From IMG/VR virus record IMGVR_UViG_3300028805_000057, positions 1-64,000 of that record: 64,000 bases of DNA. One strand, 5' to 3'. A program made the translations under genes and the position numbers. Within the stretch, counting starts at the first letter, position 1, and each line of letters opens with the position of its first letter. Shown here in pieces: positions 671-55,852 of the stretch. Source of the stretch: a virus (Duplodnaviria > Caudoviricetes). The notes beneath the pieces were generated by a model. It was not told where the DNA came from and did not search any database. It worked only from the letters and a program-made list of their open reading frames with translations.

Positions 671-811
671 AACTTTATCCTCCTTTAAAATAAGTTTTAT
701 TTGATTTGTGTTACTTGTTCCTGTCTATAATATGAAATTTCTTTCTCGCGTCGCTAATTTTTACAATCATAATATAGGAACCACAATATTAAATTATGGA
801 GGTAGAACATT

Positions 812-1045
812 ATGACAAAAAGGGAAAAGATATTTTTAGGAATCATCATTTTCTTACTGTTGGTATGTTTATCAGGGTGTGGTAATGAATTACCAAAGGT
901 AGAAGATAATTCTATAACTGAGGAGATTGTTATCAAACCTATCGAGGTAGTACCAATAACAATCAAGGAAATTGAGATTGTTAAAGATGAAAATGTAACA
1001 ACTTGGGATAATGCAAATATCCAAACATGGGATGATATTAAGTGA
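812..1045 (+). CDS. small lipoprotein-like protein
   Basis: hydrophobic N-terminus ending LSGC lipobox; GGAGG RBS. Confidence 0.75.
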   Translation: MTKREKIFLGIIIFLLLVCLSGCGNELPKVEDNSITEEIVIKPIEVVPITIKEIEIVKDENVTTWDNANIQTWDDIK

Positions 1046-1125
1046 TTCTAATAGACCTTAGCAAGTCTTTAAACTGCTATTTTTTTCAAAGATATTTACA
1101 AAAAAAAAAGAAAAAGAGCCGTTAT

Positions 1126-1299
1126 TTAAAACAGCTCTACATCGATTTTGTAACTGATTTCATAAGAACCAGTTTCGGTCTCATGAATACCAACATCATA
1201 TTTAGCCCAATCTTCAAGAGCTTCTTTATAATGTCTTAATCCTGCTTCTTTAGTTCCATATATTTCGGTTACTTCTTTCCATGTTATTGTATTTCTCAT
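1126..1299 (-). CDS. hypothetical protein (57 aa; start moved to the ATG at 1299)
   Basis: GAAAGGAG RBS before ATG; motif at 1348-1371(-). Confidence 0.7.
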   Translation of the reverse strand: MRNTITWKEVTEIYGTKEAGLRHYKEALEDWAKYDVGIHETETGSYEISYKIDVELF

Positions 1300-1436
1300 A
1301 TTTACTCCTTTCCTATAAAGAGAGTTTATTATAGTTGTCTCTCTTCTATAATAGTTCATTTCTTTTACGCGAGTATTTATACGCATATTATAGCAACCTA
1401 TAAACAAAGATATTTAATCTTAATGGAGGTAGAAAG

Positions 1437-1754
1437 ATGACAAAAGAAAAATTTGGAAAAATTTGTATTTATGTATTAAGCATTTGTTGCGTTATTCTTA
1501 TGGTTGTAATGGTATGGGGTATATTTACAGCATATAAAATGGGTATCGATAAGGGACGAGAAGAAACAGTCCAGATGGTTACCGATTTTACTGATAAGTA
1601 TAACTTCAATGAAATACAAAGTAAGGAAAATGGCGGTATAATGGCATGTTTTGGTAGTACAAAATATTTCCCAAATAGTAATAATACGTTGTTAAATTGC
1701 TACTATGATTGGGATGGTAGTTTAAAAATCAGTTTAAAGGATGTGACAAAGTAA
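1437..1754 (+). CDS. single-pass membrane protein, paralog of 1880..2188
   Basis: N-terminal TM; AYxxG..GREETxQM and YxWD shared with neighbour. Confidence 0.8.
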   Translation: MTKEKFGKICIYVLSICCVILMVVMVWGIFTAYKMGIDKGREETVQMVTDFTDKYNFNEIQSKENGGIMACFGSTKYFPNSNNTLLNCYYDWDGSLKISLKDVTK

Positions 1755-51812: not shown

Positions 51813-51940
51813 CTACAATACCTCTGTAACGCACAGATTTGCCCGTAAAGGCCTGTTTGGGTATTTTATAGTATATTTATAGGGTAAAACATGAAATAGG
51901 CCTAAATGGGCATTCTGGTGCGTCAGAAGGGCATTCTAGA
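51813..51940. repeat. palindromic repeat, copy 4
   Basis: ATACCTCTGTAACGC...GCCCGTAAAGGCC...GGCCTAAATGGGC. Confidence 0.9.
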
Positions 51941-52481
51941 AAAGGAGATAATATGACTTTAGATAAAACAATAAAGATGTTAACACAAGATGATTATGGT
52001 AATTGTGATTGCGGGGATTGGTGTAGAGCATATGATAAAGCAGTTCAAATAACAAAACAATTATCTTTTCTTGAAAGTGAGTATAATGCTTATCATATAG
52101 ATAGTGATTATTGGAAAGGCATAAAATATGCCATAGATGTTTTAAATCATGAATAATATACGGAGGAATTAAAATGAAAGGATATATACATATTGATAAC
52201 ATATATGGATTAATATCGGGACATAGTAACTATCATGGAGACAATATACTTTCGGCATTAACGTGTATTGCAGAAGGTAAAGATGTTACTAAGCCAATAA
52301 TGTCATTGGATGAAGAATATTACTCAAATAAAGAATTTAATAAATTCATTAATGATATAAAAAGTGATATTAATCAAATAATAACAAAGAACAAAGGTAT
52401 AAAAAGTGTTGAAGCTCAGGAAAGAATTAGAACAGCTCAACAAATACTTGATATTATTAACAAGCATACAAAGAGGTTAGT

Positions 52482-53408
52482 ATGAAACAAATAACAATAT
52501 ATATTGATCATATAGTTTATGCAGATGGAATATTTACTTGGATATGTAATTTCTATCAGTTAATGCATAAAGTATATGACATCGAGGTTATGACAAAAGT
52601 CATCAAACCTGAATTAAATGATATTTTTGAAAGATATAGTATTCCGGTAGTTAAGTGGAATGCTAATGTAAATTATGATACTGATATTTTGATGCTAATG
52701 TTGGATTTTGTTGTATATCCTACTAATTTCACTTTCTGGAAAAAGTATAAGATTGTACATTGTAATTATGAGATTCTTAAGTCTGAGTTTACTAATCTTA
52801 ATGATGGTAGTGAATTTATTGCAGTATCAAAGCAAGCAGCAGATGGCTTTACAAAGCGTTTCAATTTACCTTGTAAAGATATTTCATCATTTGTCATACC
52901 ATACACACCAAGACCTGTTATGAAGATTACTTCTTGTTCAAGAGTATATAACAATAAAGGTTTTGAGAGAATGTTTCATTTAGCAGATGACTTAGATGAA
53001 TGTGGTGTACGATTTCAGTGGATTAATTATAGTGAAATTGATCAGAATGGTGTTAAGTATCTACAAAGTAAAAAACATAACTTAATAACTTTCTTACCTG
53101 CATTGGAGCATCATCATTTAATGGATATGATTGCTGCAAGTGATTACTTAGTTCAATTAAGTGATAGAGAGGGTTATTGTTATGCAGTTCATGAGGCTTT
53201 AACTTTAGGTACTCCAGTCATTGTTACAGACATAGACGCATTTAAAGATATTGTCATAGATGGCCAGAATGGTTATAAGTTGCCTTTGGAGATGAATTAT
53301 AAGGAAGATACATTATTAAATATTATAAATAATGTTCCATCAAATTTTGAATTTAAAGAGGATTTGTCAGTAATTTATAGGCAATGGACTACGATTTTAG
53401 GACATTGA
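52482..53408 (+). CDS. glycosyltransferase family 4 (GT-B)
   Basis: SR...KG; SDYLVQLSDREGYCYAVHEALTLGTPVIVTD (EX7E motif). Confidence 0.88.
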   Translation: MKQITIYIDHIVYADGIFTWICNFYQLMHKVYDIEVMTKVIKPELNDIFERYSIPVVKWNANVNYDTDILMLMLDFVVYPTNFTFWKKYKIVHCNYEILKSEFTNLNDGSEFIAVSKQAADGFTKRFNLPCKDISSFVIPYTPRPVMKITSCSRVYNNKGFERMFHLADDLDECGVRFQWINYSEIDQNGVKYLQSKKHNLITFLPALEHHHLMDMIAASDYLVQLSDREGYCYAVHEALTLGTPVIVTDIDAFKDIVIDGQNGYKLPLEMNYKEDTLLNIINNVPSNFEFKEDLSVIYRQWTTILGH

Positions 53409-54504
53409 GTATCGGTTTATAACAAAGTTGGAAAGTGATTAAAATGGAAGGAAGTGCTTGGTTAATGAGAGATTTAAGAAGTGAAATGTACGCAAGTGGT
53501 ATTAATGATGACGATAACAATGTGCTTGGTAAAACAAAAGGAATGGAAATAGAAAATATTACAAGAGAAGAATTTAACCGAAAAATTAAAGAACTTGAGA
53601 GGAAGATTGCTTTATTAGAATCTAAAATTCAGAATCTTACTATGGTATATTGAAAATAAATGAGGATGATTATATGAAAGCTTTATTTATTATATTGTGT
53701 ATAGTTTTATATATTATAATCGGTATAATAACTGGAATGATATTTGTATATGTTGATAAGAAACATGGTGATTTTGATCCATATAATGGCGATGCTAATT
53801 TTGCTTATGTACTTGTGGCAATATTTTGGCCAATAGCACTTGGTGTTGTTATAATAGCATATCCTTTTATCAAATTATATGATTTTTTCATGTGGTTTGG
53901 TAAACATATTAACAGTGATGATGAATAGAAAGGAGAGGTAAAAAATGTCTTTAGCAACAACTTATGATGGAAAGTTGAGAGTAATAAATGATATTTTAAA
54001 TAAAATGAGTCCTGATGAGAAGAGGATAGTGCTTCAAAGCCTTATAAAAGAGGATATGAAAACATATTTTGAAGTAATCTGGGATGAACAGAAGCGTCTT
54101 GAAACTGAAGCTGGTGTTGAAGGAGTATGTGAATTTACTTCTGATAAAGCTTGGGTTGATGGTGATGAAGATAAGACATTTGACGATATTGAAGGTAGTA
54201 AAGATTCTGGAATTGAAATAAATTTAGCTGGTAAAGTATCTAAAGAAGCTGAGAATGCATATTATTTAGATGAGAAGATAGATAAGAAACAGGGAAATGA
54301 TAAGTTTGATGGTTTCTTAGGATATGTTAACTCAAGTGCTAGTGATGATAATGAAAAAGAATTAGAAACTGAACAGGAAACTATATTAGAGCCTGGTGAA
54401 TTTATGGATAAAGTAATGGATAAGATTGAAGATAGAATCCAGGAAATTGAAATGAAGAATAAAATGAAAAATGCGAAGTTTCCCGATTTTGGAGGTGATA
54501 ATAA

Positions 54505-55281
54505 ATGAGAAGAAGCACCCAATTTGCAGCAATTTTAGGTACATTTTTTGGTGGTTTACTTGGTTCTACAGGAACTATTTTAGTATTTAAAAAACTTGAT
54601 AAATTAGAACATAAAAAAGATTTAGAAGCTGAAGCAGAACATATTGCAGAAGTTGCTGAAACATATGAAGCAAGAATAAAAAAGTTAAAAGAATATTATG
54701 AATCTAAAGAAATTGAAGAAAAAAATGATATTTCTGAGACTAAAAAAAGTGATGAAATAGTTAATGAAAAAGCTAAAGAAGCACATAAAAGAATTACTTT
54801 AGATAAAGTTATAGAAAATCCTGATGAACCAAAAATACTTAATCCAAAATTTGTATATCAAGATAGACTTGCTGAAGAAGATAATGCAAAACCTACTGAT
54901 TATAGCAAAATTAGTAGAGATAAATATACAGATTTAAAGAAAGAATATGAAAGAGAACCAATTATTGATGAAGCAGTTAAGTTCCCTCATTTAATAACAC
55001 AGGATAGTTATGAACATGCTGGTGGTTATGTCAAAGAAGAAGTAATATATTATGAACAAAATGGTATATTTGCAACTCTTGACGATGATACAATTGTTGA
55101 TCATATAACTGAAGAATATATTGGTTTGGATAATTTAAATCTATTTGGTAGTCAGCAAGCAAGTCTTGATGGTAAGAGTAGTTTGTATGAATTATATCTT
55201 CGTGATGAAGTCTTACATATTGATTATCATATTATTTATAACGGCACCGAAGACTTCGACCATTTAGGCGATTGCAGATGA
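54505..55281 (+). CDS. membrane-anchored phage protein; C-terminal domain paralogous to 40993..41418
   Basis: N-terminal TM, coiled coil, shared C-terminal domain. Confidence 0.75.
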   Translation: MRRSTQFAAILGTFFGGLLGSTGTILVFKKLDKLEHKKDLEAEAEHIAEVAETYEARIKKLKEYYESKEIEEKNDISETKKSDEIVNEKAKEAHKRITLDKVIENPDEPKILNPKFVYQDRLAEEDNAKPTDYSKISRDKYTDLKKEYEREPIIDEAVKFPHLITQDSYEHAGGYVKEEVIYYEQNGIFATLDDDTIVDHITEEYIGLDNLNLFGSQQASLDGKSSLYELYLRDEVLHIDYHIIYNGTEDFDHLGDCR

Positions 55282-55852
55282 TTTAAAGATATTTGATAAA
55301 AAGGAGACGAAATATGTATAAACAATTTGATTTTGATACTTATAATTGGATAAAACAAAATTCAGGTCATGATGATTTGGAATATGAAGTAAAATATACT
55401 GATGGAAATGGAAAATTTGAATATGATGGCTTTATTGATGAAATGATTTATACTAAAGATGGAGAAATAAAACCATTAAAACAATTTTGTAAAGAAATTA
55501 TTCAACAAAATAAAAATGGTACATTATTTAATTATGATAATATGATTCATGAATATTACAAACTTATGAATAGATATATTCCGCCAACAGATAATCCTGA
55601 AGATTTTGCTTATCCAGTATTTTTATGTCAATCTTGTAATTCTCCTGAAGATTCTATTGTTGTAGCACCATTTTATACAATAATTTGTATACCTCGAGGA
55701 GAATGAATGTGACGCGAAAATAATTTATATTATAAAATGGAAGGCCAGGAGTTGGTCTTTTAGTTTGTCCAAAATATGACAAAGAAAGGAGAGAAAAATG
55801 GTATCAATTAAAGATATTATCCTTGTAAATTTTTTAGACAAGGAGGCAAATT

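Follow-up and report, generated by a model that had tools for sequence, protein, structure and literature searches.

Promoters of the T7 family are about 25 bp long and consist of an upstream specificity element and, after it, a melted AT-rich stretch that runs up to a purine +1, with variants specific to each lineage. T4 middle promoters combine a MotA box at -30 with a sigma-70 -10 element; they are read by host polymerase together with AsiA and MotA, and RNA starts about 7 nt after the -10 element. Single-chain two-barrel RNA polymerases are also known from phages (YonO, crAss-like gp66, and gp64 and gp96 of P23-45), although how they find their promoters is largely open. Thermus phage P23-45 encodes two, gp96, which is located in the virion and fused to the tape measure protein, and the non-virion gp64, each with a promoter motif of its own (bioRxiv 10.1101/2022.12.01.518664; PDB 8h2m, 8f72). 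YonO of the Bacillus prophage SPbeta is a single-peptide DNA-dependent RNA polymerase homologous to the multisubunit polymerases, and it reads a long phage operon starting at a site of its own, with a promoter that the paper leaves undefined (PMC5467207). Enzymes of the family PHROG 4291 have been described as characteristic of a supercluster of actinophages, together with Lactococcus 1706-like phages and Faecalibacterium phage FP_oengus (bioRxiv 10.1101/842583). Here, we describe a repeated signal, CGC-N15-TAWWAT-R, in the genome of a member of the Caudoviricetes (IMG/VR record IMGVR_UViG_3300028805_000057), the first 64 kb of which (64,000 nucleotides) is referred to as the window. We consider it likely that this signal is the promoter of the phage's own 974-residue RNA polymerase, a predicted two-barrel enzyme of the PHROG 4291 family with a helix-turn-helix (HTH) domain at either end.

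The genome is a single record of 147,894 bp with 31.6% GC and a CheckV completeness of 100%. Nearly all genes are on the plus strand, a crude gene call gives 85% coding, and a megablast search with the first 12 kb as query revealed no DNA similarity to deposited phages. In the window, CGC-N15-TAWWAT-R has 21 exact matches versus 0.78 expected, with a maximum of 3 in 100 shuffles. A position matrix was made from the exact sites, and with a threshold of at least 12 bits it detected 27 sites in the window and 44 in the whole genome, where 1.4 are expected. Spacing is rigid, in that N15 gives 28 matches genome-wide while each of N9-N14 and N16-N22 gives 0-4. Outside the fixed letters, the matrix shows a T-rich stretch 5' of CGC, a tract of A and T only 3' of it, and a purine after the hexamer that leads into a T-depleted, purine-rich run; this purine directly follows the hexamer at all strong sites. 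The matrix contains neither a TTGACA-like signal upstream nor a TG 5' of the hexamer; that is, the motif lacks both marks of a sigma-A-type promoter, whether a -35 element set 16-18 bp 5' of the -10 or the TG of an extended -10. The repeated signal is thus confirmed, and an initial annotation of the window, which had listed about 28 copies with an exact 15-nt spacing, an A/T tract after CGC, a purine after the hexamer and no TTGACA at -35, is borne out in each of these features. All but one of its 28 coordinates were recovered by the matrix, including sites it had called degenerate (26000, 43134, 43434 and 44501) and likewise those at 3181, 5259 and 35425, leaving only the site at 55713 in doubt (Table 1). 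Scanning beyond the window added the remaining genome sites and the same motif in relatives. An extra exact match at 10082 (-) is inside a gene and looks like chance.

With the crude gene call as reference, 43 of the 44 matrix sites are intergenic. They point toward the next gene or toward a cassette without an open reading frame (ORF), and leaders to the start codon measure 13-66 nt. Two clusters, at 726-10,389 and 137,089-143,657 of the genome, join on a circular or concatemeric map into one early region of about 21 kb composed of tiny cassettes. Further sites head units at 26-46 kb, one at 69,069 is upstream of the polymerase operon, and one at about 110,100 (110113, -) drives a 27-codon minus-strand gene. 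Within the first 11 kb, terminator-like hairpins (14 vs 3.1 expected) are located just upstream of the sites, and sigma-70-like sites number 64 vs 66.9 expected. Across the genome, near-consensus sigma-A sites (TTGACA-N16-18-TATAAT-like) amount to 81 vs 75.6 in shuffles and are divided 40/41 between the strands despite the nearly one-strand gene arrangement, and host-type promoters are therefore not enriched. This placement also bears on whether the motif could serve not as a promoter but as a site bound by some other protein (a repressor, a recombinase, or a protein of replication or partition). Its CGCG core is a palindrome, sites are paired back to back in two places (750/752 and 1368/1371), and tandem half-sites without a hexamer occur at 2737-2845, all of which would suit a protein-binding site. 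Such a site would not, however, explain the strict strand bias with genes, the position between terminator and ribosome-binding site, the fixed distance to an AT-rich hexamer and purine-rich run, or the fact that copies directly head ORF-less structured RNA cassettes, and we regard this explanation as very improbable.

The start point of transcription was judged from what follows the hexamer. At six sites (10365, 137089, 138138, 138406, 138651 and 110113(-)), the hexamer is separated by 0-4 nt from a Shine-Dalgarno sequence and by 13-17 nt from the ATG. Furthermore, the closing stems of five ORF-less cassettes begin at nucleotide 1 after the hexamer (3205, 3411, 3995, 5283 and 6946), and three of these RNAs have z-scores of -6 to -8. 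Because Shine-Dalgarno sequences and RNA stems begin right after the hexamer, the conserved purine at that position is most likely +1. The initial annotation had reached the same start point from RNA stems near the hexamer and a ribosome-binding site 2 nt after it at the 10365 site, and both observations hold. With a start 6-8 nt downstream, no fewer than six sites would lose the ribosome-binding site and the RNA closing stems would be cut short, such that these positions, which are an indirect measure, do not agree with a sigma-type start.

The same evidence is pertinent to a reading in which the sites are early promoters of host sigma-A, with a -10 element that lacks a -35, the CGC box and A-tract serving as spacer or UP-like enhancer, and RNA starting 6-8 nt downstream. 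Early phage genes are usually read by host polymerase, host-type intrinsic terminators close the cassettes, and the strong hexamers (TATAAT, TATTAT or TAATAT) have A as their second and T as their sixth base (-11 and -7 in a -10 element). Set against this are the lack of both a -35 and a TG element, the loss of Shine-Dalgarno sequences and closing stems that the downstream start would entail, and three findings from relatives described below: the box and its spacing are kept in phages of Actinobacteria and Clostridia despite differing sigma factors, the hexamers of relatives are often CTTTAT or TTTTAT and so do not have the -11 A, and the motif predicts a phage polymerase in 23 of 23 complete contigs. 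Host sigma-A promoters are, in our estimation, an unlikely explanation of the motif.

The initial annotation had attributed the motif to a phage-encoded RNA polymerase or specificity factor that it did not see in the window, and a search of the rest of the genome revealed a candidate for the former 6 kb past the window end. The 974-residue product of the gene at genome 70101-73025 has a full-length match to PHROG 4291 (E = 0, residues 20-972). Pfam assigns it an RdRP domain, an HTH_23 domain at residues 92-131 and an HTH/Sigma70_r4_2 domain at 935-972, and its SGADFDGD metal-binding loop (DxDGD) is invariant in 4 and in 33 aligned homologues. An AlphaFold model of the protein (pLDDT 79, pTM 0.67) was compared to the PDB using Foldseek, with QDE-1 (E 1e-7), the P23-45-type non-virion gp64/gp62 (8f72, 8f5m), plant RDR2, P23-45 gp96 (8h2m) and crAss-like gp66 (6vr4) as top matches; multisubunit polymerases ranked lower. 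A sequence search of the PDB with the polymerase profile produced no significant match. On the strength of the Foldseek matches the protein is a two-barrel single-chain RNA polymerase; by its model it has the double-psi beta-barrel polymerase fold, and it is predicted to be DNA-templated. Neither a T7-type polymerase nor a sigma region 2 is present in the genome. Thus, of the RNA polymerase or sigma gene sought outside the window, the polymerase was found and a sigma region 2 was not, and of the earlier comparison to T7-type enzymes, the start adjacent to the hexamer stands while the fold does not, as the enzyme is two-barrel (YonO/QDE-1-like). Records of cultured phages with a PHROG 4291 enzyme number 250, and at least 446 IMG/VR contigs encode one.

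In relatives that encode the enzyme, the motif recurs 5' of small genes, with N15 kept and on the gene strand. Arthrobacter phage Mudcat (45% GC) has 7 sites, Faecalibacterium phage FP_oengus (49% GC) has at least 10 with the hexamer CTTTAT, Streptomyces phage RavenPuff (61% GC) has 5, Bifidobacterium phage BitterVaud1 has 4-6, and a 41-kb relative of this phage has 10, one divergent pair among them. Eighty IMG/VR loci with the polymerase were retrieved, and 71 contain the motif. Matches number 139 on the polymerase strand and 22 on the opposite strand, compared to about 39 per strand in shuffles, and N15 alone is enriched. In almost all of these loci, one copy is located about 950 bp 5' of the polymerase gene. 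The 114 distinct sites in relatives give the consensus CGCGAAAAwwACAnnnnC followed by the hexamer TWTTAT and by a G that leads into a purine run; G is the base after the hexamer at 89% of them. The copy at the polymerase operon of relatives has a distinct and very conserved GCCC-TTTTAT form versus the early TATTAT type, which hints at two kinetic classes of promoter.

The reverse test was performed by scanning IMG/VR with a 17-base version of the motif, which returned at least 120 stretches, and by searching 50 of the contigs, selected without regard to any protein, with the polymerase profile. The polymerase is encoded in 39 of the 50, including 23 of 23 contigs that are at least 90% complete; the 11 without it are fragments, 13-88% complete. 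The motif and polymerase-encoding genomes therefore go together in both directions, and since this holds across phages of Actinobacteria and Firmicutes, the earlier proposal of a promoter class for a phage-encoded polymerase is strengthened.

Conservation also bears on whether a specificity factor of the phage might bring host RNA polymerase to the motif, much as MotA and AsiA do in T4 at a -30 box. The CGC box lies at roughly the distance of the T4 MotA box from its hexamer, and the window encodes two potential factors, a 634-aa multi-HTH protein (32247-34151) and a 367-aa fusion of sigma-70 region 4 to the RNA polymerase alpha C-terminal domain. The fusion contains a primary-sigma-like region 4 (residues 89-133), an alpha C-terminal domain (199-256) and a Cys-rich tail, but no sigma region 2. 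Its recognition helix is nearly identical to that of RpoD, and about 2,500 database proteins match it at E <= 1e-5; nearly all of the 120 listed contain both domains and are unnamed. No homologue was found in the Arthrobacter, Streptomyces or Faecalibacterium relatives that carry the motif, and the fusion was rejected as the motif reader because it is not conserved together with the motif. In addition, its gene is itself behind the motif site at 6922 and so could not start the programme, region 4.2 keeps the residues by which primary sigma reads the -35 element and which do not suit a new box, and the inferred start point speaks against a sigma-type open complex. A redirected host polymerase, whether by the fusion or by another HTH protein, is accordingly quite unlikely. 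The fusion probably acts on host RNA polymerase, and may be a decoy or a hijacker of that enzyme.

In the mechanism that we favor, in which the phage polymerase itself reads the motif, the promoter would have two parts. The first, CGC (usually CGCG) with its A-tract, would be read, probably, by the N-terminal HTH, the recognition helix of which carries an invariant Ser-x-x-Arg in all but the Lactococcus phage P092 enzyme. The second, the AT-rich hexamer exactly 15 nt downstream, would be melted, and RNA synthesis would start at the adjoining purine to give a purine-rich initial transcript. We infer this assignment of domains to promoter elements and the exact start nucleotide; the motif, its statistics and placement, the fold of the enzyme and the co-occurrence of the two across phyla are computational results. 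Around 44 promoters would operate in this way, each driving a small terminator-bounded cassette that holds a small gene or a structured RNA, for the most part in the early region, which runs across the two ends of the record. A small number would head operons of the replication region, and one would lie upstream of the polymerase operon.

How the polymerase would reach its first template may be indicated by its N-terminus. A tag, hydrophobic-x-His-YG...(K/P)WG, is located at polymerase residues 25-42 and again near the N-terminus of five head-module proteins (74621, 76543, 116216, 118232 and 119409). All homologues examined have it, in many cases no more than 5-10 residues after the start, and it falls in a disordered stretch of the AlphaFold model. 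The polymerase gene sits at the head of the structural module. Since the polymerase operon has a promoter of the same class, host promoters are not enriched and the gene has this position, an injected enzyme would be the simplest starter. The alternative is a non-virion enzyme primed by weak host transcription.

Among described systems, P23-45 is the nearest. Both are siphovirus systems with single-chain two-barrel polymerases, the P23-45 enzymes are among the Foldseek matches, and short conserved motifs lie directly upstream of mapped P23-45 starts; a virion-delivered enzyme starts the programme there and may do so here as well. They differ in that no sequence similarity is detectable, the present enzyme is free-standing with an HTH at both ends, and one enzyme and one promoter class are seen, the predicted promoter having two parts with a rigid 15-nt spacing. 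YonO reads late prophage genes, whereas the sites described here mark early cassettes, and a tblastn search with this enzyme at E 1e-5 did not detect YonO. Full-length identity to other PHROG 4291 members is 35-47%, and they share the DFDGD loop and the two HTH domains with the present enzyme; the phages of that family have genomes of about 45-60 kb versus 148 kb here, and this genome carries many more sites. T7 resembles this phage in having a conserved promoter of about 25 bp that is specific to a phage-encoded polymerase, but its polymerase has a right-hand fold rather than two barrels, and the promoter elements here are separated by a poorly conserved spacer. The P23-45 promoter-polymerase pairs are functionally closer to this system than are T7-like pairs. 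As in T4 middle promoters, a good -10-like hexamer is preceded, at about 12-15 bp, by a box in place of a -35 element; in contrast to them, no MotA or AsiA was found and the inferred start adjoins the hexamer.

Several observations weigh against a promoter read by the phage polymerase. Polymerase activity of PHROG 4291 has been proposed from sequence alone and with no promoter (bioRxiv 10.1101/842583), and delivery of the enzyme inside the virion is suggested by a single feature, the shared N-terminal tag. A search of the available literature turned up no promoter or transcriptome for any member of this family. The strong hexamers of this phage double as perfect sigma-A -10 elements, the length of most leaders would allow, site by site, a start 7 nt downstream, and the hairpin-plus-U terminators of the cassettes are an ordinary, host-type signal. 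No motif copies were found in the late region (74-137 kb), although terminator-like hairpins there are directly followed by ribosome-binding sites. Possibly, this region is reached by read-through from the 69,069 promoter; a comparison of all intergenic gaps of at least 70 nt at 10-137 kb yielded no recurring motif that could serve as a second promoter class before middle or late genes. Nine of the 80 IMG/VR loci have no motif in the fetched DNA, and neither relaxed patterns nor repeated-word counts provided an alternative. Lastly, P092 keeps the hexamer and the ACA...CCC part of the promoter, whereas the CGC box is absent. Of the enzymes, that of P092 is the most distant (35% identity), and the Ser-x-x-Arg that is invariant elsewhere has been lost from the recognition helix of its N-terminal HTH; this pattern of loss, in a single lineage, is a lead as to which domain reads the CGC box.

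On balance, a promoter read by the phage polymerase accounts for about 40 tiny cassettes, ORF-less structured RNAs included, with one common signal. It also accounts for the missing enrichment of host promoters, and could make the sigma4/alpha-CTD fusion, probably aimed at host polymerase, affordable to the phage. More broadly, it is hypothesized, with the chances in our view evenly balanced, that a widespread siphovirus lineage runs early transcription independently of its host, using a virion-delivered, sigma-free two-barrel polymerase with an N-terminal HTH that reads the CGCG box, a hexamer that is melted and a start at the adjacent purine. If true, the lineage would include hundreds of cultured phages of Arthrobacter, Gordonia, Streptomyces, Lactococcus, Faecalibacterium and Bifidobacterium in addition to this 148-kb relative, the promoter-recognition mode would be the first defined for a YonO-like polymerase, and the enzyme would be a natural fusion of sigma-like and core functions in a single chain. 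A sharply defined, rigidly spaced two-part promoter can now be proposed for a large uncharacterised branch of the two-barrel enzymes. The motif would provide an annotation rule for early genes and small RNAs of PHROG 4291 phages and, possibly, a new orthogonal polymerase-promoter pair. Because cultivable Arthrobacter and Streptomyces SEA-PHAGES isolates exist, the pairing of polymerase and promoter is quickly testable.

Table 1. Putative promoter sites and associated features in the window (first 64 kb of the record). Sites are candidate promoters from the matrix scan unless marked otherwise.
Feature	Position	Strand	Score (bits)	Context
Site (CGC at 750)	726..750	-	28.3	Drives gene 449-670 (-); abuts divergent site 752
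Site	752..776	+	26.0	Gene 812-1045 begins 36 nt downstream
Site	1347..1371	-	21.7	Shares one CGCG palindrome with divergent site 1368
Site	1368..1392	+	27.1	Gene 1437-1754 begins 45 nt downstream
Site	1810..1834	+	30.9	Terminator 1777-1800 directly 5'
Site	2481..2505	-	32.3	Leader of 24 nt to gene 2272-2457
Site	2709..2733	-	30.6	Leader of 18 nt to small minus-strand gene; near-identical copy at genome 139185
Site	2845..2869	+	23.2	Two tandem CGC-box units without hexamer 5' of site
Site, hexamer TATATT	3181..3205	+	23.9	Heads structured RNA 3205-3312
Site	3387..3411	+	19.1	Heads tRNA-like RNA 3411-3492 (11-bp closing stem from nucleotide 1)
Site	3495..3519	+	27.8	Gene 3557-3691 begins 38 nt downstream
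Site	3733..3757	+	26.1	Terminator 3701-3723 precedes
Site	3971..3995	+	24.7	Heads structured RNA 3995-4140 (z -6.4)
Site	4198..4222	+	30.0	Gene 4259-4513 begins 37 nt downstream
Site	4550..4574	+	19.2	Gene 4609-4803 begins 35 nt downstream
Site	4872..4896	+	26.5	Gene 4938-5189 begins 42 nt downstream
Site, hexamer TATATT	5259..5283	+	20.7	Heads structured RNA 5283-5420 (z -8.3)
Site	6922..6946	+	23.7	Heads structured leader and operon with sigma4/alpha-CTD fusion gene
Site	10365..10389	+	26.2	Shine-Dalgarno 2 nt and ATG 17 nt after hexamer
Degenerate site, TACTAT	26000..26024	+	22.4	5' hairpin follows
Site, TATATT	35425..35449	+	22.9	5' hairpin follows
Site	41668..41692	+	30.5	
Weak site, CTTAAT	43134..43158	+	12.0	Hexamer type common in relatives
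Weak site, CTTTAT	43434..43458	+	12.7	
Degenerate site, TATCAT	44501..44525	+	19.9	
Site	46111..46135	+	29.9	
Site	46378..46402	+	28.7	Gene 46453-46782 begins 51 nt downstream
Doubtful site, TATAAA at hexamer position	55713..55737	+	below 12-bit threshold	
Structured RNA cassettes without ORF	3205-3312, 3411-3492, 3995-4140, 5283-5420, 6946-7070	+		Own promoter and terminator each
Sigma-70 region 4 / alpha C-terminal domain fusion gene (367 aa)	8122..9225	+		Behind 6922 promoter

Some of the ORF-less cassette RNAs are tRNA-like and have a TTCGAA T-loop. They were rejected as tRNA genes, as ARAGORN finds none behind the promoters, and no Rfam family matches the cassette RNAs at gathering score. 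In Lactococcus phage P092, tRNA-like RNAs at ~3600-3700 and ~4000-4100 start directly after the P092 promoter variant, as they do in the window. A short hairpin of the type GGAGC-GGNN-GCUCC occurs right at the putative +1 at window positions 5283, 26024, 35449, 41692, 44525 and 46135 and at genome position 141646, and could be a 5' stabiliser or a signal that acts on the polymerase.

The tandem array at window 2737-2845 is built of units of about 54 bp. Its first two units start with the CGC box and A-tract but have no hexamer at N15, the third copy (2845) is the only complete site, and an element similar to the upstream units also precedes site 3971. Another repeat was noticed in a 13-kb IMG/VR locus (IMGVR_UViG_3300021387_000406), where the 9-mer ATTATATTC occurs 13 times, always on the gene strand and inside coding regions, including that of the polymerase gene; the fetched part of this locus is without the CGC motif.

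The window also encodes a PurZ-like enzyme (29502-30692, +; phrog_1211, 2-aminooxy adenylosuccinate synthetase, E 5e-44) and a MazZ-like dATP/dGTP pyrophosphohydrolase (31614-32213, +; phrog_801). Given these two genes, the phage DNA may carry 2-aminoadenine instead of adenine, which, if present, would alter the chemistry of the promoter A-tract and hexamer. A 1,426-aa primase-polymerase fusion (PHROG 4210, DUF5906) at 56617-60897 (+) is common to the same phage lineage, and the DUF6353 proteins at 35565-36431 and 48853-49821 also occur in FP_oengus.

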